A stretch of 64,000 bases of DNA from Pyrinomonadaceae bacterium. GTDB lineage: Bacteria > Acidobacteriota > Blastocatellia > Pyrinomonadales > Pyrinomonadaceae. The DNA lies in the NCBI GenBank assembly GCA_044221625.1, contig JBGAOU010000016.1, positions 12,709 to 76,708 on the forward strand, read 5' to 3'. Shown one piece after another: positions 8,142 to 43,234 of this stretch. Position 1 is the stretch's first letter. The number at the start of each line of letters is the position of its first letter. A program made the position numbers and the translations under genes. The notes beneath the pieces were generated by a model, which made no database searches, was not told the origin of the DNA, and saw only the letters and a program-made list of their open reading frames with translations.

Positions 8142-8142
8142 T

Positions 8143-8634
8143 ATGCGAAAACTATTCACAACATCGCTGTTCATCATATTGCTTGCGGCGGCCGTGATCG
8201 GCCAGTCCAAGTTCACGACCTATGACAACGACCGATTCTACTTTTCGATCGAGTATCCGTCCGACGTTCTAAAAATGCAGGCTCCGCCGGCGAATAACGA
8301 CGGGCGGACGTTTCGTTCGAAAGACAAGGCGGTTGAAATGCGCGTTTGGGGCCAGTACAACGCACTCGACCGAACCTTGAGCGAGGAGTACAACGAGGCT
8401 CTTGCCGGCTATGGGCCGGGCGTGACATACAAGGTGCTCGGCGAAAGTAGTTTCGTGATCTCGGGCACGGCGGGCGGTAAGATCTATTACCAAAAGACGA
8501 TGCTACGGACCGGCGGTGTTGAGGTCTTTTATACATTTACGATCGAGTATCCCAAGGCTCAAAAGAGTAAATTCGACCGGGCCGTCACACGGATCGCCCG
8601 TTCATTCAAATTTGACCCCGATGCCGAACCCTGA
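8143..8634 (+). CDS. secreted hypothetical protein
   Basis: ORF 8128..8634 trimmed to ATG 8143. MRKLFTTSLFIILLAAAVIGQ is a signal peptide. Confidence 0.5.
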   Translation: MRKLFTTSLFIILLAAAVIGQSKFTTYDNDRFYFSIEYPSDVLKMQAPPANNDGRTFRSKDKAVEMRVWGQYNALDRTLSEEYNEALAGYGPGVTYKVLGESSFVISGTAGGKIYYQKTMLRTGGVEVFYTFTIEYPKAQKSKFDRAVTRIARSFKFDPDAEP

Positions 8635-9938: not shown

Positions 9939-9947
9939 CGGATCGAG

Positions 9948-10649: not shown

Positions 10650-10671
10650 GCCAAATATAAGTCGCGTTCAA

Positions 10672-11940
10672 CTAAATAGCAAAGCGTTCGCGGTCCAACG
10701 AGAGTCCGGCGATGTCACCGAGTGCCGCGAATGCGACCTGATCTGTCGTAAATGATGAGGCGATAAGGGCATTTATCTCGTCGGATGTAACGGCGTTGAT
10801 CTTTGCGATGGCCTCGTCAACCGCGATCTGTCGGCCGTGAAGCATCTCAGATTGGGCAAGTGTCGCCGCTCGGGCCGCCGAATCTTCCAAACCGAGCAGT
10901 ATCGAGGAGACGGTCTGTTGTTTGGCAAGGTCAAGTTCGCCGGCAGTGATGCCGCGGTTCACAACGTCCCGCATCTCGGCAACCGCCAGATCGACGACCT
11001 CGCCCACCTGACCCGGCGAAGTGCCGGCAAAGATCGAAAACATACCGCAATCGTGATACATCACGGCAGACGCTCCGACGCTGTACGCCAGCCCGCGTTC
11101 CTCGCGGATCTTTTGCCACAAACGGCTCGACGTGCCGCCGCCAATGACGTTTGCAAGCAGGTCGGCAGCATAACGGCGATCATCGCGTGCCGAAACCAAC
11201 GGCGTTGCCAAGATCAAATGAACCTGTTCGAGATTGGCATTATGTCTCAGAAGGATCGGGGCAGCTATTTTCGGCGACGTCGTGACCTGAGCAGAAACCG
11301 TGGCCGGCGAGGAAGCGAAGGCTCTTCGAGCCATATCTACTAATTGGCCGTGTTCGAGATTTCCGGCGGCAGCAATGACAAGATTCGAAGGCGTAAATGC
11401 CGCATTGTGATATTCCCGTGTTCTCTCGGGGTCAAATCTTCTAACCGATTCGGGTGTGCCGGCGATAGACATCCCGAGGGGATGGCCGGGAAAGTATGCT
11501 TCGCTGAAGATCTCACCCAAAAACTCCTCGGGCGAATCCTCGACCATCTTCATTTCTTCGATTATCACCCGCTGTTCGCTCTCCAGGTCAGCGGCGTCAA
11601 ATCTGGGTGCTGTCAGCATATCAGCGATCAGGTCGAAGGCCTGAGGCAACTGGTCGTCGATGACCTTGATCGCAAAGCCGGTCTCCTCGTGTGTCGTAAA
11701 CGCATCGAGATTACCGCCGAGGCGATCCTGTTCAATTGCGATGTCGAGAGCGCTTCGTTTCGCTGTGCCCTTAAAGACAGTATGTTCGATAAAATGCGAA
11801 ATGCCGTTCAGCTCGACCGGTTCGTGCCGCGACCCGACCCGGAAAAAGAACCCAAGCGTCGCCGAGCGCACGCCCGGCATCCCGTCCGTAAGTATCGTCA
11901 GGCCGTTATCAAATCGTGTTTCTGTGATGTTTTCTTTCAC
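10672..11940 (-). CDS. M16 family zinc peptidase (pitrilysin-like)
   Basis: HFIEHTVFKGT is the inverted zincin motif HxxEH. 422 aa, typical M16 size. Confidence 0.85.
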   Translation of the reverse strand: MKENITETRFDNGLTILTDGMPGVRSATLGFFFRVGSRHEPVELNGISHFIEHTVFKGTAKRSALDIAIEQDRLGGNLDAFTTHEETGFAIKVIDDQLPQAFDLIADMLTAPRFDAADLESEQRVIIEEMKMVEDSPEEFLGEIFSEAYFPGHPLGMSIAGTPESVRRFDPERTREYHNAAFTPSNLVIAAAGNLEHGQLVDMARRAFASSPATVSAQVTTSPKIAAPILLRHNANLEQVHLILATPLVSARDDRRYAADLLANVIGGGTSSRLWQKIREERGLAYSVGASAVMYHDCGMFSIFAGTSPGQVGEVVDLAVAEMRDVVNRGITAGELDLAKQQTVSSILLGLEDSAARAATLAQSEMLHGRQIAVDEAIAKINAVTSDEINALIASSFTTDQVAFAALGDIAGLSLDRERFAI

Positions 11941-27135: not shown

Positions 27136-27168
27136 AAATGGCCGTGAGTTCAAAGCTCGCGGCCATTT
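27136..27168 (+). terminator. hairpin downstream of BNR/FG-GAP gene (weak terminator)
   Basis: AAATGGCCG - 15-nt loop - CGGCCATTT. Only a short T run follows. Confidence 0.4.
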
Positions 27169-27288
27169 GTCGTATCACGCTGCGGAGCAGATCAAAACGC
27201 CGGTCTGCGTACCTGGCAGGCCCAAACAGATTGAAATTAACGTCCGGAGCAGTTGTGCCTGAGACTGAAAAGGCCGATCACCGGACAA

Positions 27289-27475
27289 TTTTTGCAAAAA
27301 ACTACGCGAAAATGCCCTAAAACTGTGCATTTTTGCGGGGAAATGGGCGCGTTTTGCACAAAAGGTCGACAATTTGTCGCCAAAACTGCGCAGTTTTGTA
27401 ATAAAACTCTATAGTTTTGCGGAAAACGCGCGCGTTTTGCGCGAAAAGTCGATAAAATCTTTGGAAAACTGCGCA
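27289..27475. repeat. array of phased A4/T4 tracts and TTTTGC-armed palindromes (non-coding)
   Basis: Perfect palindromes: TTTTTGCAAAAA (27289-27300), CAAAACTGCGCAGTTTTG (27381-27398) and AAAACGCGCGCGTTTT (27423-27438). Near-palindrome: AAAACTCTATAGTTTT (27403-27418). TTTTG(C/T) starts at 27290, 27331, 27352, 27394, 27415 and 27435, giving spacings of 41, 21, 42, 21 and 20. Confidence 0.8.
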
Positions 27476-27704
27476 ATAGATCGCCATTTTCATACGGTTT
27501 TTCGCAGATCGTGTTAAGCGCCGGAGTGTTTTTGAACGAGCTTCTAAACGAAGGTCAATGCCGCCGGTAATGAACTGCCGGGGCCGGATGACCGATGCTG
27601 CAAATTCGACTAAAACGCAGTCTTCTGAGGTGCGGTGTTTTCCCTTCTTAACGATCCCTCAAGATTGATGCCGTCAGCGGCAATTTATGATACGTTCAAA
27701 AACC

Positions 27705-27732
27705 TTGACAAAGATTCGAAAGAGCGTAGATT
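27705..27732 (+). promoter_or_regulatory. candidate sigma70-type promoter facing the island
   Basis: TTGACA (27705-27710), a 16-nt spacer, then TAGATT (27727-27732). It lies about 50 nt upstream of an AAGGAG-ATG at 27784. Confidence 0.35.
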
Positions 27733-27875
27733 GTTCGTATCAACCGACAACAACCAAGCGGCTCTAACCACACAAGGAGCAATATGCCCACATCCTCACG
27801 GCCCGACGGAGCAGGCGGTTTCCGGCCCGGGCGGTTCCCGCGTGCAAGTTCCTGACCAACTATCGCTGTCCAACA

Positions 27876-28938
27876 ATGTGGTGGAAGATCGGGATTGTTG
27901 CCTTTCTGGTCATTGGTGTTCGGGTGCCATCCTGAAATACCTTGACGACGATGCCAAGCGGCAAAAGCTGCTTCCGGCCAAAGGATCGCTCGGTACTTTC
28001 GAGCATCAATCCGTTCATCCCCGCACCGACGCCGACGCCGACGCCGCAGCTTTGAAAGAGTACATATACGCGGGCAGCCGAATGCTTCAGGTCGTGGACG
28101 CCAATGCCGCTGAGACGCCGCCCGCCGATCTGGCGTCTGGCGGCCTTCGAGCGGTGTCTGGTATGTGTACAACCTCGTGACGGCGGCGTGGACCTCGTAT
28201 GGGTGGGGCAACAGTTCCGGACATTCCGGTCAGGGCGACTTTGACGGTGACGGCAAGACGGACTTTGCGATCTACCGCCCGACAGACAACAACTGGTGGA
28301 TCACGACATCAGGTAACAGCAGCTACTACTCGACGTTTGGCCAGCGGCGATATTTCCGTCGAAGCGGATTATGACGGAGACGGCAGGACCAACATCGCCG
28401 TCTTCCGCCCGGGGACGACCAATGCCAATTGGTACGTCTATCAATCCTCGACAAGTTCGACCGTCCAGACGCAATACGGCCTCTCGACCGACAAGCCGGC
28501 ACCGGCTGACCTCGACGGCGACGGCAAAGCGGATATTACGGTCTGGCGTCTGAGCAAACGACCTTTACGCTTGAGTACTTGTACTACCACCCAATCGGCG
28601 GTAATGTCGTTCGCGGGCTACACGCTGACCTCGGGCGACAAGGTCGTCTCGGCCGACTTCGACGGCGACGGACGGGCCAATTACGCATTGCGCAATGGCT
28701 CAAGCTGGCTGATGCTCAACTCCGCCTTCGCCAACGACGGTCGCTCAACCGGAGGCGGCGACCAAATATCGATTACTTGTCCAGAACGACTTCGACGGCG
28801 ACGGCAAAGTCGGTACAAGCGTCTGGCGCGACTCGAACGGCCCTAAAAAATATACGCAAATCAGGCTCGGGGGCTCTCCGCGAAGAAGCCTGGGGCACAT
28901 CCGGCGATATACCCGTACCGGCACTCTGGAGAAGATAA
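27876..28938 (+). pseudogene. FG-GAP/VCBS repeat protein pseudogene (at least 5 frame breaks)
   Basis: Repeat consensus pieces lie in all three + frames. They include MWWKIGIVAFLVIGV (27876), GQGDFDGDGKTDFAIYRPTDNNWW (ORF 28165) and ADYDGDGRTNIAVFRPGTTNANWYVY / ADLDGDGKADITVWR / ADFDGDGRANYAL (ORF 28199). QNDFDGDGKVGTSVWRD is in the third frame and WGTSGDIPVPALWRR is in ORF 28579. Confidence 0.7.
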
Positions 28939-28950
28939 CGGAGGCACCCA

Positions 28951-30175
28951 ATGAACAAACTCACATTCACAATACTCATCACGTTGGCCGCCATCTTTTC
29001 GGCGTTGGCACAAGAGCCTGATCGAGGCTTTCGTACCGCGAACTCATATGCTGCAACCGGGCTTGAGGTTGTCAACACAACGAACTGAAAACCGCTTGTT
29101 GCTCAATATACCATTGGCTTCATTGCCCGCAGGAAGAGGCACGAGTCCGGGCTATACGGTCTTCCTTCGGTACGACAGCAAACTGTTCGATTCGATACAT
29201 ACCACTCGTGATGACGGCTACCCGGACGAGAATGGCAGCAGCTATTTTTCGACCGATAGCCTATCTCTGAGCGAACGGGGCGGCTGGAAGATGCCGATCG
29301 GCTACCAACTCCAGATCACCGATCGACGAAATCTACAAACGGCAGATGTGTGCCACATGCACGACCCGGTCGAACAACTTTCCTTCGTTTGGAAGGTCGA
29401 AATGGTGATGCCGGACGGCAGTATTCGGACATTTCTTCCGGTTGCCGCAAACGGAACTTTTATCGGAACCGGAGCAGATGGATATTCCAACGTAAACTAT
29501 AACGGTGAGGAACTGACCGCAATTCAGGGGACCCATCCCGGATCGGGGACATGCTACACCGATGTAAGCAGCACCGGGCCAAACACAAGCGGAATGAACT
29601 ATGTCACGATGGACGGTTCGCGGCTTCGGTTGTTCATACCGTATTCGGCGACCGTCCAGCCGAACCTCCGCAATTGGAGGATGTATTATCCGGACGGCAC
29701 CGTTGTTGAACGAGCGCCGGCCAACTCAAGTGCATGGCAGACGATCACTGACAGAAACGGAAATAAGATCGAGTTTATCGACAACAAGATCCAGGATTCG
29801 GCCGGGAGATACATTGAATTTGCGTCTGACTCAACCGGGCAGATCGTTCGGACAAAAGGGGTCGGAGCAGCCGTTGTCGAAACCCACATCGAGTGGGAAA
29901 ACCGCTGGATACAGAAAAAATATCGAACAACAACAGCGAATAACGCTCAATCCTCGCAGCAATACGCGACGCTGGCCGCGAGCGTTTACGGTGTAAAGAA
30001 GATCACGTTTCCGACTCAGGCGGGCGGCCAAACGATGGCGTTTGAGTACTTTTCAAATGCGACCCAGCCCGGAGCCAATGTCTACACCGATGAGTGGGGT
30101 GAAATAAAGTCGATAGAATTACCGACCGGTGCGGAGAGCAGTTTTGTTTCGATCAGTTCGTCAGGGCGGCTATGA
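28951..30175 (+). pseudogene. N-terminal part of the main rhs gene, interrupted by a frameshift near 29086
   Basis: ATG 28951 (RBS ACGGAGG) encodes MNKLTFTILITLAAIFSALAQEP...GLEVVNTTN and stops at 29086-29088. ORF 29048..30175 continues in another frame with ENRLLLNIPLASLPAGRGTSPGYTVFLRYDS, the usual start of Rhs-family shells. The 3' end overlaps the next fragment. Confidence 0.7.
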
Positions 30176-33100
30176 AACGCTGGCGTCGGATGTTCTGACC
30201 AGAAGCGTCTCAAATAAGGAACTGGCGTACGACGAGGTGTACGAGGGGACGACTTCGCAACGAGTTGACCCATGGCTATATTCCATTTCGAAATGGGTCA
30301 GCACCATCACGATCCCGAGCGGAGCCGTGAGCAGCGAATATCTCTTTTACAATTCGAATGGATCGTATTGGGATTCCGGCATGTCGTATCGGTCGACCGG
30401 CCCGAATGGCGGGATCACTGAACGATTATGGGCGTACAACCTACCGTTCGCAATGTCAGGCAGCATTCCGCCGGCGAGTGGTGGCTGGTCGGGGGTCGGA
30501 AGCGCCAATTCCTACGTAAAAGCAGAGTTTTCGACGCTGCCCGACGCGAGTGGAAATATCTCATCATCATCACCGACCGCGATCAAGGAATTCAAATTCG
30601 ACAAGAACGGAAACGTCCTCGAAGTACTTGAATACGATTGGGTCACTTATGGTTCCGTACCGCGAAGCGGCAGCGGCATAAATGCCAAGGTCACCGGCCT
30701 GCCGACCAGCGGCCTGACGCTCAAGCGGAAGACGGTAAACACCTATTACAATCAAGCGGCGGATGCTGACAGCACGAGTGTGAACGGCAATGAGTATATG
30801 AGTCCTTCATCGCCGTCGCTTAAGAATCTCATCAGATCGACCGAGGTCCGCGATGGCAGCGGCGTTGTGAAGGCACGCTCAGAGTTCTACTATGACAGCA
30901 CCACCACAACGGGCAACCTGACGGAGACACGCGTTTGGGATTCGACCAAGGGAGCAGTTTCCGACCCGCTGACCACCGGTACGAGCGGAAACGCGGTTTC
31001 GACACAGGCGACTTATGATGCGTTCGGAAACCCGACGACCGCAACGGATGCAAAAGGCATCGTCTCAAAGATAACCTATGGGGCGGTATCGGGCCCGAAC
31101 GGAAACGTTACCGGACTTTACCCGACTGAGACGATCCTTGCCGACGGCACGTCGCTTGCCCGTACTTCAACGGCGAGTTACGATTTCTACACCGGAGCCG
31201 TACTTGCGACGACCGACGAAGACAACGACATCACGAACGCGACAGAATACGACGACATCGGTCGCCCGATAAAGGCGATCACGGCTCAGGGAACCGCTCT
31301 CGAATCCTGGACGATCACTGAGTATCACGACGATGACAGATTCGTAGTGGTCAAGTCAGATCTCGAAGCAAAAGGCGATGGCAAAAAGGTCGCGACGCAG
31401 TTCTACGATCAGCTTGGACGGGTGCGCCTGACAAAGACGTTGGAGGATGCGGCCACGCAATCCGCAACGAATGAAACTGACGGGATCAAGGTGCAGACGC
31501 GGTACGGTATCAACGACCCGACGCCGAGCGTGACAACCGACCCGGAGAACAGCCTCGGAAGCTATTCGCTGGTGTCAAATCCGTATCGGGCAGGCTCGTT
31601 GGCGGCGGCCTCGGCGGAGACGACAATGGGTTGGACATTATCGTATTCGTCAAAAACAGGACGACACAGCGACGCCACCACGTATTCGGGCTCGACCGTT
31701 CCGACAGTTGGAAGCACGACGAACTCGACGGGCGTCGTCCAGACGGACATCGACGCCAACGCCACCACGGTCACCGATCAGGCAAACAAGGTGCGCCGTT
31801 CGCTGACGAACGCACTTGGGCAGCTTATTCGCGTGGACGAGCCCAATTCGAGCAACCAATTAGGTACAGTAAGCAGTCCAAACCAAGCGACGAATTATAC
31901 TTACAACACGTTAGGCAAAATGGTTCGTGTGGAGCAAGGCAGTCAGAACCGGTATTTCATGTACGACTCGTTGGGTCGGACGCTGAGAATCAGGCAGCCG
32001 GAACAGGAGGTGAACACTGGGCTGAATACTTCTGGCGACCCGTATAACAATAGCTGGACTGGTGGTTTTACTTACGACAACAACGGCAATGTTCTGACCA
32101 CGACCGACGCCAAAGGCACGACGATAACAAACACCTACGACGCTCTCAATCGGCCTTTGACACGGACTTACAACGACAGTCCGCAAACAGCGACGGTTAC
32201 GAACACGTACGGCACCACTGCTCCTGCCATTGGCAAACTGATAAAGGTCTCAAGCAGCGTTTCGGAAACGCAGTACAGCGGGTTTGACGTGCTTGGACGC
32301 CTGACCGAGAGCAAGCAGATAACGCCTCTGGATGGCGAGACCATTTCGACGGCACCTGTGCGAACCAGCAGCTACCAATACAATCTGTCGGGTGCCCTTA
32401 TCCAGCAAACATACCCAAGCGGCCGCGTCGTCGAAACCGACCTCGATGCGAGTGGCGATATCGAAAAGATCACAGGACGTGCTACATCTAGTGGAATCAA
32501 CCACAACTTTGCTACTGCGTTTTCATACCTGCCCGATGGCAAGATCGCGAGTTTGAAACTTGGGAATGGTCTGTGGGAAGCTGCAAAGGTGAACTCAAGG
32601 CTGCAAGTAACTGAGATCGCGATGGGACATTCGATCGGAGACGGTGCGATGATGAAGCTCAATTACGAGTACGGCGAACTTCAGACAAACGGCACTGTCG
32701 ATGCGACTCAGAATGCAGGCAACATAGCCAAACAAACCGTGACTTTCAGTGGACTAGCTAATCCTTTCGTCCAAACTTACAAATATGATTCGTTAGATCG
32801 AATCAAAGAAGCGAAAGAAGCCGTGAATGGAAACCAAACGTGGATTCAGACGTTTGGGTATGATCGATTTGGTAATAGGAATTCACTCGCTGAAACCGTT
32901 AATGGACAAGCGAAATCGATCAATGAATTGACTCTTCCAACGGTTGACGCAAATACAAATCGGTTTTCTAGCACGACAAATTATGAGTATGACGAAGTTG
33001 GGAATTTGATCCGCGATGCGAATGGACGACAGTTCATTTTCAACGGCGATAATAAGCAGACTCAAGTAAAGGATGTCTCAGACAATGTTGTCGGAACCTA

Positions 33101-34265
33101 TGTTTACGACGGAAATGGCAAACGTGTAAAGAAGATAACCGCAAGTGAGGTAACGGTTTTCGTTTACGACGGGATGGGTAAACTTGTCGCAGAGTATTCA
33201 ACAGCAACGCCGCCTACAAATCCAACGGTCAATTACACAGCGACAGACACGCTTGGTTCGCCTCGCGTGCTGACAGATCAACTTGGTCAAGTCAGATCCC
33301 GCCGAGACTTTATGCCATTTGGCGAAGAAGTAGCCCTAGACTCCAACTATCGCACTACTGCCAACAAATACGGCACCGGTGACAAGGTCCGACAGAAATT
33401 CACCGGCTATCAGCGCGACGAAGAGACCGATCTAGATTTTGCAGAGGCTCGCTATTACTACAACGATCACGGCAGATTCACGGCAGTTGATCCGTTGCTT
33501 GCCTCTGGAAAAAATGTCAATCCCCAAACGTTTAATCGCTATGTCTACGTATTGAACTGTCCGCTTATGTTCACCGATCCTAGTGGACTACAGGCAGGAA
33601 GACAACAATACGGCACACAACCCCCGCCGACTAAAATCATCGATATTTTCGTCACGATTACCGTGAAGGAAAGGCAGAACACAGGTTCACAAAGAGATTG
33701 GAACGCGTTGGCAAAGTCGGCCCCGGGTTATCAAACGGTAAACGTCTACACTGTCGACGATGGCTCAGCTACGGTTGATCGTTTCAAATCATCGTTAGAG
33801 AGCGAAGGTCGAACCGTTGTCGTTTTCGGTCACTCCGTGGCTGAGAGCAAGGCGGTTAAGCAATCGACTGCAACCGGTAGCCGACTGGGGGGTATGGGCC
33901 TTTCCTTCTCGAATGGCACATTTCAGGGCAATGTCGCACTTCCGGATAACTCTCTTGGCCAGCCGGTTGACACGGTCAAGGCAGATAACGTGCTACTTTT
34001 CACTTGCGACTCTGGGACTGTTCCGACTGAGATTTGGTCGAGGATGGATGTGGGGGGCGAAGTGATCCAGAACGGTGGAGGGCCGAATGGCGCGTCGAGT
34101 GTAAAATATCAAGAGGAGGCCGCATATGCTGCAACAAGCAAACTTATAAATGGCGGAAGCATGAAGGAGGCACAAACTGCCGCGCAAAATGCTATAAACA
34201 AATCCACGATCCCAACACAGGATAAGGGGGATGTGATTTTGCGCTTTCAGCGGAGGGATCAGTGA
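30129..34265 (+). CDS. rhs: Rhs/YD-repeat protein core with C-terminal polymorphic toxin domain (main rhs, continues from 28951 across a frameshift)
   Basis: Many YD repeats: YDAFGNP, YDQLGRV, YDSLGRT, YDNNGNV, YDALNRP, YDSLDRI, YDRFGNR, YDEVGNL. Core end is FTGYQRDEETDLDFAEARYYYNDHGRFTAVDPL...NCPLMFTDPSGL at 33590. A unique 224-aa tail (33591-34262) follows. There is no in-frame ATG for the first 85 codons. Confidence 0.85.
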   Translation: MRRAVLFRSVRQGGYETLASDVLTRSVSNKELAYDEVYEGTTSQRVDPWLYSISKWVSTITIPSGAVSSEYLFYNSNGSYWDSGMSYRSTGPNGGITERLWAYNLPFAMSGSIPPASGGWSGVGSANSYVKAEFSTLPDASGNISSSSPTAIKEFKFDKNGNVLEVLEYDWVTYGSVPRSGSGINAKVTGLPTSGLTLKRKTVNTYYNQAADADSTSVNGNEYMSPSSPSLKNLIRSTEVRDGSGVVKARSEFYYDSTTTTGNLTETRVWDSTKGAVSDPLTTGTSGNAVSTQATYDAFGNPTTATDAKGIVSKITYGAVSGPNGNVTGLYPTETILADGTSLARTSTASYDFYTGAVLATTDEDNDITNATEYDDIGRPIKAITAQGTALESWTITEYHDDDRFVVVKSDLEAKGDGKKVATQFYDQLGRVRLTKTLEDAATQSATNETDGIKVQTRYGINDPTPSVTTDPENSLGSYSLVSNPYRAGSLAAASAETTMGWTLSYSSKTGRHSDATTYSGSTVPTVGSTTNSTGVVQTDIDANATTVTDQANKVRRSLTNALGQLIRVDEPNSSNQLGTVSSPNQATNYTYNTLGKMVRVEQGSQNRYFMYDSLGRTLRIRQPEQEVNTGLNTSGDPYNNSWTGGFTYDNNGNVLTTTDAKGTTITNTYDALNRPLTRTYNDSPQTATVTNTYGTTAPAIGKLIKVSSSVSETQYSGFDVLGRLTESKQITPLDGETISTAPVRTSSYQYNLSGALIQQTYPSGRVVETDLDASGDIEKITGRATSSGINHNFATAFSYLPDGKIASLKLGNGLWEAAKVNSRLQVTEIAMGHSIGDGAMMKLNYEYGELQTNGTVDATQNAGNIAKQTVTFSGLANPFVQTYKYDSLDRIKEAKEAVNGNQTWIQTFGYDRFGNRNSLAETVNGQAKSINELTLPTVDANTNRFSSTTNYEYDEVGNLIRDANGRQFIFNGDNKQTQVKDVSDNVVGTYVYDGNGKRVKKITASEVTVFVYDGMGKLVAEYSTATPPTNPTVNYTATDTLGSPRVLTDQLGQVRSRRDFMPFGEEVALDSNYRTTANKYGTGDKVRQKFTGYQRDEETDLDFAEARYYYNDHGRFTAVDPLLASGKNVNPQTFNRYVYVLNCPLMFTDPSGLQAGRQQYGTQPPPTKIIDIFVTITVKERQNTGSQRDWNALAKSAPGYQTVNVYTVDDGSATVDRFKSSLESEGRTVVVFGHSVAESKAVKQSTATGSRLGGMGLSFSNGTFQGNVALPDNSLGQPVDTVKADNVLLFTCDSGTVPTEIWSRMDVGGEVIQNGGGPNGASSVKYQEEAAYAATSKLINGGSMKEAQTAAQNAINKSTIPTQDKGDVILRFQRRDQ

Positions 34266-34882
34266 AGATTGTAAAATTCAAATCTGTGAGAATGTTTGTA
34301 CTTGTTGCAGCAATGACTGCTGGAATTATCAGTTGTGGTTCTGAAGATCCGACCACAACGGGCTCTGGCCCTGTTGCCAGCGCCCAAAATACCCGAACTG
34401 TTACGCCACAGGGGATTCGACGCTCAGACGGCGGCACGACCTTCCTGCGGGTGGACGGCTGGCCGATTCCATCATTTGCCGGAGCGGAAAGGGAGGAATT
34501 CGAAACTTCGATCATGACCTCCGATGGACGAAGCGTTAAGGCCCACCTCACGGTCATACGAACGGATCCGCTCTCCCTGATTATCGATAATCCCCTCTAC
34601 TTTACGGGCACAGGCCTTGAGAAAGTTCGAGTTAACAAGGTGAAGGAATATCGCACGTCGGCAGGTGTTTTCTCATACAGGTTTCTCGTAAATGACGCTG
34701 ACGTCGATAAAAACACGAACGAAGTTCGCTCAACTCGGGGCTTCCTATACTCCTACTCGTATTACGATGAGGACGGCGACGGCGTGTTCGAGTCGCTGGT
34801 CGTCAGCGAACAGGACCGCAGCGGGTTGAAAGGGTTCCAGAATGAACCCCACCTTCCTGAGTGGTCCACTTTGTCCAGATAA
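34262..34882 (+). CDS. putative cognate immunity lipoprotein for the main Rhs toxin
   Basis: The start overlaps the rhs stop (GTGA). Lipoprotein-like MFVLVAAMTAGIISCGS and an EF-hand-like YYDEDGDGVFE. Position is immediately 3' of the toxin tail. Confidence 0.6.
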   Translation: MKIVKFKSVRMFVLVAAMTAGIISCGSEDPTTTGSGPVASAQNTRTVTPQGIRRSDGGTTFLRVDGWPIPSFAGAEREEFETSIMTSDGRSVKAHLTVIRTDPLSLIIDNPLYFTGTGLEKVRVNKVKEYRTSAGVFSYRFLVNDADVDKNTNEVRSTRGFLYSYSYYDEDGDGVFESLVVSEQDRSGLKGFQNEPHLPEWSTLSR

Positions 34883-35029
34883 CGGAGAAGACGGGGTCAT
34901 CTATGAAGTTCACCGAATAAGTCAAACTCACGGGGTCCTGGACGACGGTCGCTGACGCGGTCGGTGTGCTGGTTCGGTGACAAGGGAAATGGCCATGGCC
35001 TGAGATGTTGCGGACTTGAATTGATTGAT

Positions 35030-37330
35030 ATGTACGGGACCGCGAGGACCAACGACACGCTCAAATACCTGACGACGGTCACACAAGGCTCGCAGACGAG
35101 GACATTCACTTACAACAGCCTTTCGAGGCTGCTTTCGGCGGCGAATCCGGAATCGGGCACGATCAGCTACGGCTATGATCCAAATGGCAATCTGACGAGC
35201 AAGGTTGATGCAAGGTCGATAACGACAAGCTACCTTTACGATGCCCTGAATCGCGTGACGGATCGCAACTACACGAACGAGCCAAGCGGTTCCGAAACGC
35301 CGGATGTTGACTACTTCTACGGCACCACGGCGCCGAAAGTCGGAAAGCTGACGAAAGTTAGTTCGTCCGTTTCGACAACCGAATACACGTCGTTCGACAT
35401 CTTAGGACGTGTGACCGCTCACAAACAAACAACCGATAGCAACGAGTACACGACCGGCTACACATACAAGCTCAGTGGTGCGTTAGACGAGCAAACATAT
35501 CCCTCAGGTCGGGTTGTGAAAAATGAGTTAGACGCATCGGGCGATCTGTCGTTGGTTACAAGTAAGGAAAACTCTTCGGCGATCTACAAGACTTACGCCA
35601 ACGATTTTACTTACACGGCGGCTGGTGCAATATCGAGCCTAAAACTCGGAAATGGAAGATTTGAATCAACGCAGTTCAATAACCGCTTGCAACCGACTCA
35701 AATCGCGTTGGGTTCGTCCGTTGGTAATGCCGGACTTCTGAAAATCGACTACACCTACAACACGACCGGCAACGCCGACAACAACGGAAATCTGCTAAGC
35801 CAAACGATCACGGTTCCCGGTCTAAGCCATCCGTTCGTTCAAACCTACACTTACGACGAGCTCAATCGTTTGAAGTCAGCCACCGAAACCAACAACTCGA
35901 CACAGACTTGGAAGCAGACCTTCACGTTCGACAGATACGGTAATCGGCGTTTTGACGAGGCGAATACCACGATGCCAACTTCGTTCTCGAACCAGGCTTT
36001 GACGAATCCGACTATTTCGACGAGTAATAATCGGCTGACTTCGACGGGTTGGACGTACGATTCGGCGGGAAACACTATTGGCGATCCTGACGGCCGTAGT
36101 TTCATTTACGACGCTGAGAATAAGCAAGTCGAAGTAAAGAACTCAAGCAATGCCAGTATCGGAACTTACTTTTTCGACGGCGACGGAAAGCGCGTCAAAA
36201 AGGTTGTGCCCGTAACAGGCGAAACAACGATTTTCGTCTACGACGCGAGCGGAAAATCCATCGCCGAATACTCAACCGTCGTCGCAAATACCGAAGATGC
36301 AAAGGTAAACTACCTAACCGCCGATCATCTTGGTTCGCCCAGAATCAACACAGATGCTACAGGCACCGTCATCGCCCGGCACGATTACCATCCGTTTGGT
36401 GAAGAAGTTACGACCACCCAACGAACAGGCGGTCTCGGATATGCCTTGGACACAATTCGTAAGCAATTCACTGGGTATGAACGGGATATTGAGTCAGAAC
36501 TGGACTTTGCTCGAAATCGTTATTACAACTCAAATCACGGAAGGTTCACTACGACCGATCCGTTACTGACTTCTGGGAGACTTGAAGACCCGCAGTCGTG
36601 GCATCGCTACTCTTACGTGCTGAACAGCCCGCTTCGATATGTTGATCCGTTAGGACTATATGAATGTGGCACAAGTCTAAAAGAAAAACAGTGTCAGAAG
36701 TTTGAACAAGCTCGCCTAGACCTGGAAAAGGCCCGTGATTATTACCAAAAGAAAGGGGATACAACGAAGGCGGATGCACTAAGCAACGCGCTGAAAGCAA
36801 TTGGAACATTGAACGACAAAAATGGACTTACAATTGAGATTGGTAAGGTCTCAAAAGGAGCGGCGGCAGAAACAAGCTTTGGAATAGGTGCTGACGGGAA
36901 ACCTCTTCTGGCGAAGGACGCAGACGGTAAAGGAAATTATGTCGCTAATGTTGTCATGACGTTTAAATCTGCCGATGACATGACCGCAGAGGTCCTTTCT
37001 CACGAAGGAAGTCATACAGAAGATCGGCAGAAGTTTATTGCTGCGATGTTTGCAGCTTCCGCAAAAGATCCTCTTTTTACTGATGAGATGGCTAAGAGTT
37101 TACCGGAAAATCTAACGAAATACGCAACTGAGTCAAAAGCCTATCATAACTCATCGTATGTTCAAGAATATAAAGGAACTGAAGGGGATTATTGGAAACG
37201 TGGTTGGGCAGAGGTAGATCGACAGAAGGCTATCGATTATACGCTTCGCACAAGCGATCTTTATAAGGTTACTCCGAAGCCTGGGGAACAGGGTCGAAGA
37301 CTCTACGAAACAGCACCACCTAAGCCATGA
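35030..37330 (+). CDS. orphan Rhs fragment 1: about 545 aa of Rhs core plus HExxH metallopeptidase-like toxin tail
   Basis: ORF 34964..37330; first ATG is at 35030. It is collinear with the 3' half of the main rhs (TAPKVGKLTKVSSSVSTTEY, YPSGRVVKNELDASGD, YDRYGNR, FTGYERDIESELDFARNRYYNSNHGRFTTTDPL, DPLGL at 36644-36658). The 223-aa tail contains HEGSH (37001-37015). Confidence 0.8.
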   Translation: MYGTARTNDTLKYLTTVTQGSQTRTFTYNSLSRLLSAANPESGTISYGYDPNGNLTSKVDARSITTSYLYDALNRVTDRNYTNEPSGSETPDVDYFYGTTAPKVGKLTKVSSSVSTTEYTSFDILGRVTAHKQTTDSNEYTTGYTYKLSGALDEQTYPSGRVVKNELDASGDLSLVTSKENSSAIYKTYANDFTYTAAGAISSLKLGNGRFESTQFNNRLQPTQIALGSSVGNAGLLKIDYTYNTTGNADNNGNLLSQTITVPGLSHPFVQTYTYDELNRLKSATETNNSTQTWKQTFTFDRYGNRRFDEANTTMPTSFSNQALTNPTISTSNNRLTSTGWTYDSAGNTIGDPDGRSFIYDAENKQVEVKNSSNASIGTYFFDGDGKRVKKVVPVTGETTIFVYDASGKSIAEYSTVVANTEDAKVNYLTADHLGSPRINTDATGTVIARHDYHPFGEEVTTTQRTGGLGYALDTIRKQFTGYERDIESELDFARNRYYNSNHGRFTTTDPLLTSGRLEDPQSWHRYSYVLNSPLRYVDPLGLYECGTSLKEKQCQKFEQARLDLEKARDYYQKKGDTTKADALSNALKAIGTLNDKNGLTIEIGKVSKGAAAETSFGIGADGKPLLAKDADGKGNYVANVVMTFKSADDMTAEVLSHEGSHTEDRQKFIAAMFAASAKDPLFTDEMAKSLPENLTKYATESKAYHNSSYVQEYKGTEGDYWKRGWAEVDRQKAIDYTLRTSDLYKVTPKPGEQGRRLYETAPPKP

Positions 37331-37782
37331 GAAGAAAAATGCTTGTCAAAATGTTAATTTCTGCTGTGCTTTGTATTTGTCTCGGAAACGGACATCAGGT
37401 TTTGTGTCAGCAAGCTGATTCGAATCCACCTGTAGTTGAGGCAGTGATCCCTGTTTTTCCAGCTACAGCGATTGCTACAGCACAAGAAGGACAGGTTTTG
37501 CTTCTTGTTATGGTCCGAAATGACGGTAAGGTTAAATCAGTGGAATTCAAATCGGGTCCGTCCATATTTAGACCGGTTGCAAAGCTGGTTGCATCGCGCT
37601 GGAAGTTTGCTCCAACGAAGAGTTCTACGACATGTTCGGTACAACTCTCATTCATTTTCAAATTAATGCCTGATGAAACCAAATCTGAGGACATGCTTCC
37701 TGTTTATCGGCCCCCATATGAAGTTGAAGTACGAGCGAAGCTTCCGAGCGTGTCAAAGGATGCAGGTCAAGATCAAAATTAG
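37327..37782 (+). CDS. secreted TonB C-terminal-domain-like protein, putative immunity for orphan toxin 1
   Basis: ATGA overlap with the upstream stop. Signal peptide MRRKMLVKMLISAVLCICLG. VIPVFPATAIATAQEGQVLLLVMVRNDGKVKSVEF...ASRWKFAP matches the TonB_C pattern. Confidence 0.6.
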   Translation: MRRKMLVKMLISAVLCICLGNGHQVLCQQADSNPPVVEAVIPVFPATAIATAQEGQVLLLVMVRNDGKVKSVEFKSGPSIFRPVAKLVASRWKFAPTKSSTTCSVQLSFIFKLMPDETKSEDMLPVYRPPYEVEVRAKLPSVSKDAGQDQN

Positions 37783-37833
37783 CCGTAATACTTCTAACCT
37801 GTGATCGGGTCGGAAATCGAAAATAATGCTTGA

Positions 37834-37859
37834 CAGCCTTTTTGCGAAGGCTGTTTTTT
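37834..37859 (+). terminator. rho-independent terminator closing the rhs / orphan-1 transcription unit
   Basis: CAGCCTT - 6-nt loop - AAGGCTG followed by TTTTTT. Confidence 0.75.
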
Positions 37860-38346
37860 ATGCTTTTTGCTGGTTGCTCTCTAAGACTGTGTCGAGGAAT
37901 TGCAGGATGAAGTCCTGCTTTTTCTTTGGCAGGCGGCGGACTTCCTGGAATCTTCTCTCTAAGGGCGTAACTGGTCCGGTCTTTTTCTTTTTCAGTGTCG
38001 GCTCGTCGTCCGCTCCGACGAGGTAGGAAGCGGAAACGTCCAGGACTTTGGCGCAGGCCTGCACGACTTCTAGGGCGGGGTTGACGGCCCGCCGCTCGTA
38101 GTCGTCGATCATCTTCACGTTCGTATCGATGGCGTCGGCGAGCACCTCGGGCACATCGCCCTCGCTGATCTTGAGCGCAAGGCCCTCGGCAAGAGCGGTC
38201 TTGCCGACGCCGGGTTCGCCGACGTAGAGCGGGTTATTCTTCTTGCGGCGGCAGCTGGGACTCAAGCAGTCGTATCCACGCCTGCGGCTGCGACTGCCGC
38301 AACGACCGCATCTAGCGGACAAGGCGATGTAATCGCATTGCCGCAT
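37858..38346 (-). pseudogene. chimeric gene remnant: ClpA-like Walker-A fragment fused to the C-terminal part of an XRE-type HTH protein
   Basis: aa 33-72 are [40 protein letters not shown], the ClpA/ClpB D1 P-loop region (about 38131-38250). They join directly to ..[39 protein letters not shown], helices 2-5 of an XRE HTH. The N-terminal 32 aa are Arg/Cys junk. Confidence 0.65.
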
Positions 38347-38955
38347 GCTCCAGCGTCAGAGTCGGCGTCGATTTTTCCGTGCCAAAAACTACTCGAAGAC
38401 TGTAGTTCGCCGTCATCAAGCGGTTCATTGGACACGTCTCAGAACGAAGAACTGGATACGGTCAAGGCTATCAAGGCCGCATACAATATTTGTTCCTTGA
38501 TACCGGGAATCGGATCTGCGTGCGCAGCAGCGTCGGTAATAGTAAGTGCGGGACAAGGAAACCTTGGTGAGGCCGGAACCAATGCTCTAATGGTAATCCC
38601 CGGGCTCAAGCAGCTTAAAGGTGTCGGTTCTGTTGTACGGGCAGCTGATGATGTAGCCGTCTACGTGTCGCGTGTAGGAAACGACATTCAATATGTTGGA
38701 CTTACCAGTAATATAATTAGACGGGCGGGGGAACATTTTAGATCTACGGGAATTGCAATCGAACCGTTGATCGGAGGTCTAACGAGAGCCGAAGCGAGAG
38801 GTGTAGAACAGGCGTTAATTAAAATACATGGTCTTCAGAAAAATGGTGGTACGTTACTAAATAAAATCAACAGCATTGCAAAATCCAATCCGAAATATGA
38901 ACAACTAACCAAAAGAGGGTTTGAGATTTTACGTGAAAATGGCTACACATGGTAA
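38338..38955 (+). CDS. orphan toxin cassette 2: pre-toxin Gly-rich linker plus GIY-YIG-like nuclease domain (no Rhs arm, no ATG start)
   Basis: [27 protein letters not shown]...[15 protein letters not shown]...LLNKIN reproduces the GIY..YIG..R..H..E..N order of GIY-YIG (URI) nucleases. The upstream [13 protein letters not shown]...[21 protein letters not shown] resembles a pre-toxin TG linker. The frame opens with TTG; the first in-frame ATG is at codon 85. Confidence 0.55.
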
Positions 38956-39416
38956 GAACAATGAAGATACAAATGGGTGATACATTCGAAATCAAGACAG
39001 CTCAGGGATTAGGTTATATACAGTTTGCTTACCGCGATAAAAACGGAATTGAATATGTTCGAGTTATACGTGGACTGTTTGATAGTCGACCAGCTGGTTT
39101 GGTCGATTTGGTTGGCAAAAAAGAACAGTTCATTGTTGGATTTCCGTTAACTATTGCCGCTAACAAGGAACTTGTAAATTACGTCGCCCGCTTCCTGCTC
39201 CCAGCAGATTTTGAAATGCCGCGATATATGAGGGCAAAGCATTATGTCAGAGGAAAGTTTCTTGGTTGGCATATCGTAGATATTAGTAATTGGAAAAGAA
39301 AGCTAGTCTCGAATTTAAGTGAACAAGAAGTGAAAATGTCTCCGTTGGGAGTTTGGAATGACACATTGTTAAAAGAGCGGATAGCTACCGGTTGGTGTTT
39401 AGAAAACTGGGTCTGA
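38949..39416 (+). CDS. putative immunity protein for orphan toxin 2
   Basis: Its ATG overlaps the toxin stop by 7 nt. 155 aa, low GC, no family recognised. The call is positional. Confidence 0.5.
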   Translation: MVRTMKIQMGDTFEIKTAQGLGYIQFAYRDKNGIEYVRVIRGLFDSRPAGLVDLVGKKEQFIVGFPLTIAANKELVNYVARFLLPADFEMPRYMRAKHYVRGKFLGWHIVDISNWKRKLVSNLSEQEVKMSPLGVWNDTLLKERIATGWCLENWV

Positions 39417-39512
39417 CGGTTTTCTTTCCAGCTATTCGTTTACGACGCCGGAGGTGCGCTTGCGGCGGAGTATTCGACACAGGTCGAGACGGCAAACCCA
39501 CAAGAAAGCTAT

Positions 39513-40790
39513 TTGACAACAGACCACCTGGGAAGCCCGCGCGTGATCACCGACAAGAGCGGCAACGTTATTTATCGCAGAGACTTCATGCCATTTGGTG
39601 AAGAACTCTCAGAAGGAGTCGGGACCAGAAGCACGACTCTGAAATATGCCGCCAGCGGAACTGATGGCGTTCGTAAACGCTTTACGGGCTACGAGAAGGA
39701 TGCTGAGACCGATCTCGATTTCGCCGAGGCCCGAATGTATCAAAACAAACACGGGCGATTCACCGCCGTCGATCCATTGATGGCTTCCGCCAGTCCCGGC
39801 GACCCTCAGACTTACAACCGATATTCATACACTGGAAACAACCCCATCAATCGCACCGATCCGGCAGGTTTGAAGTGGTGTAGAGAGGACGCAACGGGCA
39901 ATGCCAAATTCACCGGTGAAGGAACCGCTTTTGATAAAGGATGGACGGGTTTTGATGATCAAGAGAGAAGAGTGTCCAACGGGGGTAATTTCAATGGAAC
40001 GTATTTAGCCACTGGCCAAATTGCGTTTTTCAACTCTAATGGATCGATAGAGCTTCGTGAGAAGCCGAGTGAATCAGATCAAGTTGAAAGACAAAATCAG
40101 AATGTAGTACAGGGTCAAAATGAAGTTATAGAGTCATCTGTAACGGAACTGGCGACCAATATCACGATCAGACCACGAGCCGATCTTCCGCTGCCTCCTT
40201 GCGTCCCAGGCACGGGTTGTCAGGATGTCTCAAAACCAAGCCCGCCGTCACTAGAAGTGGGGGCAAGCGCCGACGAAGTCCTCGACGCGACGCAGACAGT
40301 AACAGAAACGATCGGTCTCGTCCCGGGTCTCGAAGTTGCAGATCTGGCTTCCGGGGCGATTAGTGGATTTCGCGGTGATTACACCGGGATGATCCTGAGC
40401 GCCGGGGCTATTCTTCCGGTTGGCGGTCAAGTATTTACAGGTGTTAAATGGGCTCGGCGTTTAGAAAAGGCTCGAGAACTTGGTAAAGCTGGAGAATTAG
40501 CCGCTGGCATTACCGAAGCTAAAAAAGCAATCGAAGTTGGTGGTCGAAAACTGTTTCCGGACGCGGTTGATAACGTTGCAGGCGTACTTACAGAAGTCAA
40601 AAATCTCGGAAAGCAGAGTTATACTAGACAACTGCGAGAATATAGCAAATATGCGCGGTCGCAGCCTGAAAAGATGGATTTTGTCCTATTTACTCGAAGT
40701 GACACGATCTTGTCCGGCCCGCTTAAGCGAGAAATTAGCAGCGGCAACATCATTCACAAATGTTTCGATGGTCCGTGCAAACAATTCTAG
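39513..40790 (+). CDS. orphan Rhs fragment 3: last ~150 aa of Rhs core plus PD-(D/E)xK (Tox-REase-7-like) nuclease tail
   Basis: The open frame actually begins at 39417, directly after and in frame with the TGA of the preceding gene (..FVYDAGGALAAEYS..). DHLGSPRVITD, FMPFGEE, FTGYEKDAETDLDFAEARMYQNKHGRFTAVDPL and DPAGL mark the core, whose end is at 39872. The tail has a PT-TG-like GLVPGLEVADLASGA.. and then FPDAVDNVAGVLTEVKNLGKQSYTRQLREY (PD..E.K). Confidence 0.7.
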   Translation: MTTDHLGSPRVITDKSGNVIYRRDFMPFGEELSEGVGTRSTTLKYAASGTDGVRKRFTGYEKDAETDLDFAEARMYQNKHGRFTAVDPLMASASPGDPQTYNRYSYTGNNPINRTDPAGLKWCREDATGNAKFTGEGTAFDKGWTGFDDQERRVSNGGNFNGTYLATGQIAFFNSNGSIELREKPSESDQVERQNQNVVQGQNEVIESSVTELATNITIRPRADLPLPPCVPGTGCQDVSKPSPPSLEVGASADEVLDATQTVTETIGLVPGLEVADLASGAISGFRGDYTGMILSAGAILPVGGQVFTGVKWARRLEKARELGKAGELAAGITEAKKAIEVGGRKLFPDAVDNVAGVLTEVKNLGKQSYTRQLREYSKYARSQPEKMDFVLFTRSDTILSGPLKREISSGNIIHKCFDGPCKQF

Positions 40791-40805
40791 AGAACTCAGT
40801 TAGAT

Positions 40806-41444
40806 ATGAACTTGAACGAACGCATTTACGAATTAAACGCTAGGTTCAATGAACTAGTTGGGAAATCACCTAAAACGCCAACGGAAATGGAGGAGAAGGA
40901 GTTGGTTCGGGCCGAATTAGAAAAAGCACTGCTAAAACAGTCGCAACCTCTTCACGATGACGTTTTGGCAGTCGGCATTCGAATCAAATCCGTTTCGGAT
41001 TTCGTTAATACTGCAGATAAATACCCAGAGGCAATTCCGGTACTTGTCAAGCACCTGACAAGACCGTACCACCAACGAACAAGGGCAGGCATAGTCCGGG
41101 CTTTGACTGTAAAAGAGGCCAAAGGCATCGCCAATAAAGCAATACTTGCGGAGTACCGTAAGGCTCCGAAGGACGACTTTCATTTTGCCTGGTTATTTGG
41201 AAATGCCATGAGCGTCATAGTGACGGCGGACGATCTAGAAGAATTGATCGATATCGTCAAGGATGAAAGCAACGGCGAATCGCGAACCGGATTCATCGAG
41301 GCCTTGGCGAAGATCAGATCGCCCCGAGTTATTGAAGTACTCCATCAACTCGAAAAAGATAAGAATCGGATAGTGGCCGAACGGGCAATGAAAATGCTCG
41401 CCCGAAAAGCGAAATCACCAGACCGAAAAACACGTTCACGCTGA
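40806..41444 (+). CDS. HEAT-repeat-like protein, putative immunity for orphan toxin 3
   Basis: AIPVLVKHLTRPYHQRTRAGIVRALT and ESRTGFIEALAKIRSPRVIEVLHQLEKDKNRIVAERAMKML resemble PBS-lyase/HEAT repeats. It lies 15 nt after the toxin stop. Confidence 0.55.
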   Translation: MNLNERIYELNARFNELVGKSPKTPTEMEEKELVRAELEKALLKQSQPLHDDVLAVGIRIKSVSDFVNTADKYPEAIPVLVKHLTRPYHQRTRAGIVRALTVKEAKGIANKAILAEYRKAPKDDFHFAWLFGNAMSVIVTADDLEELIDIVKDESNGESRTGFIEALAKIRSPRVIEVLHQLEKDKNRIVAERAMKMLARKAKSPDRKTRSR

Positions 41445-41866
41445 AGCCAACCAGATCCTTTGCCGTGAACTTTGCGGCTCCTGAGTCTCAAACGATCTAT
41501 TCATGAAAAGGTCAACTCACATAAGTGTTGATATTTGACGACTTAGAGTAACGCATACAACGTGAGACTCATTCCGGCATTTGCCTTATCGCGGGTTTCG
41601 GGCGTTTAGGCGATGTCGGGCTTTGGTGCTGATCTGGAGCGTTTGGACTCGCGCTTGTGAAGCCGGAGAAGCAGGCGTTCGGCTCGGCGGCCGGTATGAT
41701 GGCGACCGGCGGCGAAAACGACATTACCGACGAGCCGGAACGCGGCTTTCCGTTTGCGGCCCGATGGGCGATTCTTGCCTCAAATTCGATTTCAGAATAA
41801 ACTCTGCCTAGCAGCAATTCTTATACGACTATTCGATATCGTAATAGCTCGGCCATTTTTATACAG

Positions 41867-43234
41867 ATGAAATTTTATAACGACATTCTCGGACTGATCG
41901 GCAAGACGCCGCTCGTACGGATCAACAATATTACCAAGCAGCTCAAGATCAAGGCGCCGATCTATGCCAAGATGGAGAGTTTGAACCCCGGATATTCGGT
42001 CAAGGACCGCATCGGCATCTCGATGATCGACTGGGCCGAGCGCGAGGGCGTCTTGAAAAAGGGCGGCACGATCATCGAGGCGACATCGGGCAACACCGGC
42101 ATCGGTCTCGCACTGGTCGCGGCCGTACGCGGCTATAAGTGCATATTTGTGCTGACGGAAAAGGCGTCGACCGAAAAGGTGCGTTATCTGAAGGGTTTGG
42201 GGGCCGACATCGTCGTCTGTCCGGCGGCGGCCAAGCCCGGCACGCCCGACCACTATGTCGCCACGGCAAAACGCATAGCCGAGGAAACGCCGAATTCGTT
42301 TTACCCCGACCAGTACAATCACCCCGAGAATCCGGCGGCGCACTATCGCACGACCGGCCCCGAGATCTGGGAGGACACCGAGCATAAGATCACGCACTTT
42401 GTCGCCTCGATCGGCACGGGCGGCACGATCAGCGGCACTGGCCGATTTCTAAAGGAAATGAATCCCGACATCAAGGTGATCGGCGCCGACCCGTACGGTT
42501 CGATCTTTAAGACCTACAAGGAATCGGGCTTTATCCCCGAGGCGACGCCGTACCTGGTCGAGGGCATCGGGCAAAACCTGCCCGTCGGCAACGCCGACCT
42601 CAACACGATCGACGAGATCATCAACATCACCGACCGCGAATCATTTGACATGGCACGCCAGCTCGGCCGCCGCGAAGGCATCTTTTGCGGGGGCTCGGCC
42701 GGCACGATCTTCGCCGCCGCACTCAAGGTGGCCAAGGACCTCGACGAATCGGCCTGCATAGTCTTTATCGTCTGCGATACGGGCGAGCATTACCTAAGCA
42801 AGTTCCACTCCGACGAGTGGATGAAGGAAAAGCTGCTGCTCGAACCGCAGCGGATCACCGCCAGCCTGATCGCCGACACCAAGAGCGCCGGTTCACCGCG
42901 GCAGCTGATCTCGGTCGGGCCTGACGAAAAGGTCTCGGCGGCACTGGCCCTGATGAGCGAGAACGGCGTCACACAGCTGCCCGTCATCGACGGCCACACG
43001 TCGGTCGGCAGCCTTCGCGAAAGCCACATTTTGACCAATCTGCTCAAGGACCGCGAACTGCTCGACGCCAAGGTCAGCGACATTATGGACAAGAGCTTTC
43101 CGGTCGTGGACGTTGACGAGAGCTTTGATTCGATCAAGAATAAGCTGACCAAGTCGCCGGCCGTCGTGATCGAGGATTTTAAGCGGATCACGGGTATAAT
43201 TACGCGTTCGGACGTTTTGGACCTGCCGCACTAG
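41867..43234 (+). CDS. cystathionine beta-synthase (PLP CysK-like domain + tandem CBS domains)
   Basis: [23 protein letters not shown] (PLP lysine), GNTGIGLA, and a C-terminal CBS pair (VTQLPVIDG.., [11 protein letters not shown]). 455 aa. Confidence 0.85.

Follow-up and report, generated by a model that had tools for sequence, protein, structure and literature searches.

C-terminal displacement was reportedly described for enterobacterial rhs loci by Jackson in 2009. In such loci a full-length rhs and its rhsI are followed, on the same strand, by 5'-truncated rhs-CT/rhsI modules, and a DPxGL motif bounds the variable tip. Elsewhere, in strains other than the orphan's own, such tips occur as fusions with full-length genes (Poole 2011, PMC3150448), and the same was reported for Snodgrassella alvi (Steele 2017, PMC5727410), a non-enterobacterial species in which a complete rhs gene precedes many orphan toxin/immunity pairs and diversity arises from recombination and horizontal transfer among co-resident strains (PMC5727410). 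Here, a locus with the same features is described in a Pyrinomonadaceae bacterium (GenBank assembly GCA_044221625.1). The whole stretch of DNA analysed, referred to as the window, comprises 64,000 nucleotides (nt) of contig JBGAOU010000016.1 (positions 12,709 to 76,708), and the array lies on its plus strand between 28951 and 41444. With a probability of roughly 0.8, this array is a Rhs polymorphic-toxin locus built by serial C-terminal displacement between strains. The reading builds on direct observations of domain content, linkage of toxin and immunity genes across genomes, alternative alleles at the locus and a recombination breakpoint.

ORF listing and translation placed the toxin-encoding open reading frames (ORFs) at 30129-34265 (1378 amino acids, aa), 34964-37330 (788 aa), 38338-38955 (205 aa) and 39513-40790 (425 aa), all on the plus strand and each with a small ORF immediately 3' of it. 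The first belongs to the main rhs gene, the second (orphan 1) and the fourth (orphan 3) carry truncated shells, and the third is a tail-only cassette. RHS/YD repeats (PF05593, TIGR01643) were recognised by the Pfam and NCBIfam profiles in the main ORF (E = 4e-18) and in orphan 1 (E = 3e-13); orphan 3, which retains the core alone, matched none. The RHS-associated core (TIGR03696) was detected in 30129-34265, 34964-37330 and 39513-40790 with scores of 53-58 bits against a cutoff of 32.5, and it ends at DPSGL 33590 in the main gene, DPLGL 36658 in orphan 1 and DPAGL 39872 in orphan 3, a variable tail following in each case. At the protein level the main shell is 47% similar to that of orphan 1 over 574 aa and 57% to that of orphan 3 over 152 aa, while the two orphan shells share 52% over 151 aa. 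BLASTP comparison of the tails and of the small ORFs downstream of them (four of each) gave no match better than E = 0.03; hence the tails, and likewise the four immunity candidates, are mutually unrelated. Toxin and immunity genes are coupled: GTGA occurs at 34262 and ATGA at 37327, the genes of the tail-only cassette overlap by 7 nt at 38949, and 15 nt separate the last pair at 40806. Homologous toxin-immunity pairs recur as linked genes in six other sequences (L018, L100, L101, L102, L104, L105). In all these respects the analysis agrees with an earlier sequence-only reading of this DNA, which had described a full-length rhs followed by three 5'-truncated toxin/immunity cassettes on the same strand, with four unrelated C-terminal tails, the two orphan core ends given above, coupled small ORFs and about 150 aa of shell in orphan 3 (151-152 aa in the alignments with the main and orphan 1 shells). 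The profile search it had called for found RHS repeats and/or core in all three shell-bearing ORFs.

Evidence for displacement comes from related sequences in which the same tip occupies another position. Tip 2 and its immunity gene, an orphan cassette in the window, are carried in L001 and L016 by a single full-length Rhs of 1719 aa at the same locus. Both sequences are ~100% identical to the window from ~35574 on, including the last ~2 kb of rhs and everything downstream. Sliding identity and blastn comparisons delimited a breakpoint zone within the shell of orphan 1 (35394..35574, plus strand): the identity of L001 to the window is ~60% before 35394, ~84% over 35394-35573 and ~100% from 35574. 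L001 represents the same locus, since its 5' flank matches the 3' end of the upstream FG-GAP gene at 96%. The two arrangements occur together in one sample, ERZ28614995 (L001 and L013), and the contigs bearing the main-gene variant end at 35591-35664, where both variants converge. As for tip 1, an orphan cassette in L018 shares 76% identity with its cassette, immunity gene included (33402-34866). The movement of cassettes between full-length and orphan positions is therefore supported in both directions of comparison, and the search for alternative arrangements in related genomes, suggested by the earlier reading, did yield one.

L018 itself (GCA_973514655.1, 4049-19232) harbours a second acidobacterial-type array, in which three orphans (271, 1246 and 985 aa) come after a 1813-aa Rhs and a small ORF lies downstream of each; one of these orphans carries a toxin of the tail-1 family. 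The substitutions between L007 and L008 cluster at 31100-31500 and 35235-35285, and in L010 an in-frame deletion of 15 nt is present near 35220, which suggests further mosaic recombination in the shell-coding DNA.

An array of this layout could also be a silent reserve, its orphans being re-armed within the chromosome when retained shells recombine with the main core. The same-strand order and the shell fragments kept in two of the three orphans fit such a role, and the model is established in Salmonella (PMC3967940): in strain LT2, main and orphan sequences share 95% over 522 bp, and recombination between them has been demonstrated. In contrast, the shells of the main gene and the orphans studied here are only ~54-57% (about 56%) identical at the DNA level, their best blastn match being 83 bp at 73% and the longest exact match 12-13 nt; the tail-only cassette, moreover, has no shell whatsoever. 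In the absence of usable DNA homology between main and orphan shells, swapping within the locus by homologous recombination is implausible, and a silent reserve is considered very unlikely. The orphan/displacement model put forward in the sequence-only reading thus holds in one part and fails in the other: tip displacement is borne out by L001, L016 and L018, whereas the retained 3'-core segments cannot be regarded as homology arms within the array, as no such arms emerged from the DNA comparison of the shells.

The main gene ends in tail 1 (33591..34265, plus strand; 224 aa), which represents a small, uncatalogued family of Rhs C-terminal toxins with an invariant His81/Cys139 pair. The window copy has no Pfam match. 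A word-indexed search with tail 1 retrieved only two close relatives, whereas an exhaustive profile search gave 41 cluster representatives, nearly all located C-terminally to an RHS core; in the alignment of 34 sequences H81 and C139 are the sole invariant columns. The AF2 model based on this alignment reached a pLDDT of 92.9 (a 3-sequence alignment had given 39 and was replaced) and positions H81 and C139 just after the strands 74-80 and 133-137. The model thus agrees with the layout expected of caspases, in which the two catalytic residues, His and Cys, sit where beta-strands of an alpha/beta fold end. The top Foldseek matches were MALT1 paracaspase and caspase-8/-6, although they were weak (E = 7e-4, TM 0.40-0.44), and weak CHAT matches (E = 0.0015) were found in two of the 34 family members. 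Tail 1 shares the His/Cys pair and the predicted alpha/beta fold with Tox-Caspase of the Zhang 2012 catalogue (PMC3482391), and with moderate confidence it may be considered a caspase-like His/Cys peptidase toxin. Immunity candidate 1 (34262..34882, plus strand) comprises 206 aa if it starts at GTG 34262, or 196 aa if it starts at 34292, and possesses a lipoprotein-type signal with the lipobox IISC, recognised by inspection. No Pfam or NCBIfam match was obtained for this protein; a 68%-identical homologue is encoded directly 3' of the tail-1 homologue P0001 in L018.

Orphan 1 (35030..37330, plus strand) encodes 766 aa from ATG 35030, in a frame that is open from 34964, and retains ~540 aa of the 3' shell, with the core reaching DPLGL. 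Tail 2 (36659-37330, plus strand) has a conserved HEGSHxED motif, which is present in every intact member among its six homologues, and gave no profile match and no match to PDB sequences. A match to Glyco_hydro_8 (E = 0.002, below the cutoff) is absent from all members of the family and was consequently taken as chance. The HExxH motif is shared with Tox-MPTase of the Zhang 2012 catalogue. Neither tail 1 nor tail 2 matches any Pfam model. Immunity candidate 2 (37327..37782, plus strand; 151 aa) consists of a signal peptide and a TonB_C-like domain (Pfam TonB_C, E = 1e-9), and TonB_C proteins are also encoded 3' of tail-2 homologues in L102, L104 and L105.

The exported immunity proteins are thus paired with the peptidase-like tips 1 and 2, while those of the two nucleases described below are cytoplasmic, and this distribution suggests an envelope or periplasmic site of action for tails 1 and 2. 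Immunity proteins for the Tox-MPTase families are missing from the catalogue, which treats lipoprotein immunity as exceptional and leaves TonB unmentioned (PMC3482391); in contrast, tail 1 is accompanied here by a lipoprotein and tail 2 by a TonB_C-like protein. Tentatively, and with less than even odds, the two modules could be seen as uncatalogued envelope-acting pairs, namely a caspase-fold His/Cys peptidase neutralised by a lipoprotein and a small HExxH peptidase neutralised by a secreted protein resembling the TonB C-terminal domain, whose carriers would be Sec-exported, PAAR-less Rhs proteins with coupling to an FG-GAP propeller gene and not to the nearby type VI secretion system (T6SS).

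The remaining two cassettes resemble known toxins, so that the earlier statement that none of the four tails looks commonly annotated had to be abandoned. The tail-only cassette (38338..38955, plus strand), which lacks an Rhs core, is predicted to encode a GIY-YIG nuclease of the Tox-URI1 type. The signature of this family (Y, YxG, R, [RK]xxE, N; PMC3482391) is represented by Y79, Y89-x-G91, R99, R124-x-x-E127 and N145/N148 (numbering from 38428). Each signature residue is conserved in at least 80% of the 84 homologues, and all are found in the window copy. The homologues, many of which match PF01541, are located C-terminally in RHS, PT-HINT and haemagglutinin proteins; in the window copy the PF01541 match is sub-threshold (15.9 bits against 22.6, E = 0.017). 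Immunity candidate 3 (38949..39416, plus strand; 155 aa) has no signal peptide, and its homologues with 39% and 48% identity are encoded directly 3' of GIY-YIG toxins in L100 and L101, at unrelated loci. In L100, the region 5038-11886 contains a phage-type integrase and, after it, a string of toxin/immunity cassettes that lack a core, GIY-YIG and Ntox37/Tox-WTIP among them; a divergent Rhs lies alongside, and the array is of another, integrase-associated cassette style.

Orphan 3 (39417..40790, plus strand) is composed of ~150 aa of shell/core and a 305-aa tail (tail 3); no start codon is present 5' of TTG 39513 or ATG 39588, that is, none precedes the shell fragment. Tail 3 was identified as Pfam Tox-REase-7 (PF15649; ~40482-40724, 62.3 bits against a cutoff of 25). 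The adjoining immunity candidate 4 (40806..41444, plus strand; 212 aa, no signal peptide) contains HEAT repeats (HEAT_2, 38 bits against a cutoff of 27.7), which are the catalogued immunity partner of Tox-REase-7 (PMC3482391), so that tail 3 and its neighbour correspond to a listed Tox-REase-7/Imm-HEAT pair. A PT-TG pre-toxin domain was considered 5' of the two nucleases and rejected, as Pfam gave no match at E <= 5. PDB sequence searches with tails 1 and 2, the tail-only cassette and the family profiles A2 and A3 returned nothing meaningful.

A terminator-like hairpin with a 10-bp stem followed by a T-run (37832..37855, plus strand), recognised by a consensus scan only, is situated directly 3' of the tail 2 cassette. 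Next to it, on the minus strand, a 162-aa chimeric ORF (37858..38346) joins a ClpA/B-like Walker-A fragment to the C-terminal half of HTH_3. This ORF is kept in all related contigs, is called as a gene in metagenome contigs and is probably the scar left when cassettes underwent illegitimate recombination. Together, the hairpin and the chimeric ORF divide the tail 2 cassette from the last two cassettes. On the whole, clues to the expression of the array are weak. The promoter scan was uninformative (10 sites versus 12.3 expected). TRF and Rfam searches of the intergenic regions found nothing.

Such interruptions raise the question of whether the orphans serve mainly as an immunity archive, selection acting on the immunity genes only and the toxin halves being decaying, non-functional passengers. 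The hairpin and scar ORF between the second and third cassettes, the missing start codon before the shell fragment of orphan 3 and the absence of a core from the tail-only cassette are all in line with this idea, and other Rhs loci, too, are known to contain immunity genes that have been orphaned (PMC5727410). Yet the orphan toxins retain every catalytic signature intact, namely HExxH, the residues of URI1 and the Pfam match to REase-7, no orphan is frameshifted across contigs 99.4-100% identical, and co-occurring strains actively use tip 2 as part of a full-length gene. The archive with inert toxins is hence a possible explanation, but not the favoured one.

The main rhs gene (28951..34265, plus strand) encodes a Sec-type signal peptide (MNKLTFTILITLAAIFSALA/QEP), the YD shell, the RHS core and tail 1. 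The sequence-only reading had treated it as one ORF. In the window, however, its 5315 nt are no multiple of 3, and the pieces 28951-29088, 29048-30175 and 30129-34265 lie in three frames, while the gene is intact (1770 aa) in seven metagenome contigs (L007, L008, L010-L014), which are among many contigs of the same species retrieved from public assemblies with proteins of the window. Compared with the intact alleles, the window has a G>T change making TGA at 29086, 4 additional nt at 29091 and single-nt deletions at 30150 and 30161, that is, a stop and three frameshifting indels. The FG-GAP repeat gene directly 5' of rhs (27784..28938, plus strand; Pfam FG-GAP_3 and FG-GAP), delineated by three-frame translation and an indel map against L008, is split into at least 4 frames in the window and has ~30 indels; in L008 (3474-4649) and L009 it is intact (391 aa) and ends 12 nt before the rhs ATG.

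If these lesions were genuine, the main rhs and the FG-GAP gene would be true pseudogenes, and the array a fossil of a decaying locus; the stop and the number of indels speak for this. Base-by-base comparison with the metagenome contigs showed, however, that all 38 small indels of the window, which are peculiar to this assembly, fall, together with ~50 substitutions, within the 2.7 kb of 27427-30161, and none was found in the 21 kb of 30806-51444 relative to contigs 99.4-100% identical. The indel:substitution ratio in the affected stretch is ~38:53, whereas independent metagenome contigs agree with one another at 99.5-100% and differ almost only by substitutions. The reference for this stretch was provided by five such contigs, which are mutually concordant, and short-read contigs end in the very same zone. 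Confined indels, concordant contigs and the breaks in short-read assemblies fit natural decay, which seems unlikely, less well than a low-quality assembly patch; most likely it is such a patch that disrupts the FG-GAP gene and, in rhs, the 5' part.

Further upstream, the intergenic region 27138-27600, 5' of the FG-GAP gene, contains reiterated 'AAAACTGCGCA...TTTTGC'-like motifs. Self-blastn pairs 27318-27392 with 27402-27475 at 75%, and TRF and Rfam reported nothing for this region.

On the other side the array is followed by a gene for cystathionine-beta-synthase (CBS; 41867-43234), 100%-identical copies of which occur in two metagenome-assembled genomes (MAGs) of 'uncultured Chloracidobacterium sp.', with 76-90% identity in MAGs of Pyrinomonadaceae, Pyrinomonadales and Blastocatellia, which places the host in the Pyrinomonadaceae (Acidobacteriota). 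A complete T6SS cluster follows CBS at 43775-64000, encoding FHA (three copies), TssK, TssL, TssM, TagJ, TssA, TssB, TssC, Hcp, TssE, TssF and TssG; the ORFs that were scanned included neither a VgrG nor a PAAR gene. The CBS-T6SS gene order is kept in ~45 sister MAG species of Pyrinomonadaceae, and no Rhs core was found 5' of CBS in any of them, except for L066, where it lies on the opposite strand. The right boundary of the variable Rhs island maps to 41445..41498: homology to the two closest MAGs (L020 and L021) resumes at 41498, and L020 carries a different Rhs tip 5' of this position. On the 5' side of the island only L022 and L096 share an FG-GAP gene upstream. Since the sister species lack an Rhs core at this site and L020 has a different tip, the array is regarded as a strain- or species-level island.

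The beginning of the T6SS cluster ~2.3 kb downstream of the array makes it tempting to view the Rhs proteins as cargo of this system, like classical PAAR-Rhs effectors. Both Rhs alleles at the locus, however, start with Sec-type signal peptides, and they contain neither PAAR, prePAAR or VgrG domains nor the PVxxxxGE motif of N-terminal cleavage in T6SS Rhs proteins, which was sought as a candidate and is absent. The adjacency is not conserved either, as the ~45 sister species carry CBS-T6SS without an upstream Rhs core (L066 excepted). Delivery by the T6SS is therefore not indicated, and this explanation is judged improbable. In these properties the locus departs from enterobacterial rhs loci, being that of an Acidobacterium whose Rhs begins with a Sec signal peptide and lacks both a PAAR domain and vgrG linkage, as well as from the T6SS/VgrG-linked effectors of Snodgrassella alvi. 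WapA of B. subtilis is a Sec-dependent Rhs/YD toxin with an N-terminal signal peptide in place of PAAR. Meanwhile, the upstream FG-GAP protein coupled to Rhs recalls the TcB/TcC cocoons. In its 391-aa form from L008, this propeller protein shows a sub-threshold match to TcdB_toxin_midN (E = 9e-4, below the Pfam cutoff), and it may be a TcB-like partner of Rhs; no TcA-like gene was seen.

Taking the above into account, the following scheme of displacement between strains may be proposed. The full-length Rhs would be exported by Sec, with tail 1 enclosed in the YD shell and released by self-cleavage after DPSGL, and the co-transcribed lipoprotein would shield the producing cell from it. In the first displaced cassette, the tip would be metallopeptidase-like (HExxH) and the immunity protein a secreted one of TonB_C-like type. 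The second would combine a GIY-YIG nuclease of the Tox-URI1 type with an immunity protein of 155 aa that stays in the cytoplasm, and the third a Tox-REase-7 nuclease with a HEAT-repeat immunity protein; we infer that the tails are toxic, that the adjoining proteins neutralise them and that delivery proceeds in this way. The array would have been assembled by serial C-terminal displacement through between-strain recombination inside shell-coding DNA. Each orphan shell would derive from a different rhs lineage, with no reshuffling among the array's own members, and an exchange would require incoming DNA that matches the orphan's own shell. Most plausibly, the orphans persist because their immunity genes still guard against neighbours armed with those tips.

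Several points weigh against this scheme. The window copy of the main rhs is disrupted, and if the disruption is real, the strain would be unable to deploy tail 1. The caspase-fold match of tail 1 is weak by TM, tail 2 is considered a HExxH metallopeptidase-like toxin by its motif only, and the Rhs alleles lack every T6SS-related domain and motif sought despite the adjoining T6SS. Moreover, in the case of the difference between L001 and the window, either arrangement could be the ancestral one.

The array genuinely represents the orphan/displacement kind known from other bacteria and lies in a phylum from which no such array had been characterised; it extends the Rhs orphan-cassette architecture to Pyrinomonadaceae, a family of uncultured soil and water Acidobacteria. 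What is new about it is modest and concerns the caspase-like and HExxH tips with exported immunity proteins, and an Rhs with a Sec signal that is coupled to an FG-GAP protein and adjoins a T6SS cluster to which it apparently does not belong. The locus also provides an instance of natural tip exchange, in which one tip is full-length in one strain and an orphan in a co-occurring strain, with the crossover inside the shell. Since an orphan shell may differ from the main gene that precedes it, arrays of this kind can serve to store tips that stem from different rhs lineages, and, if so, their cassettes would not be poised for shuffling inside the chromosome. The caspase-like and HExxH tips, together with their lipoprotein and TonB_C-like immunity proteins, fall outside the current catalogues and may be regarded as candidate envelope-targeting toxins.

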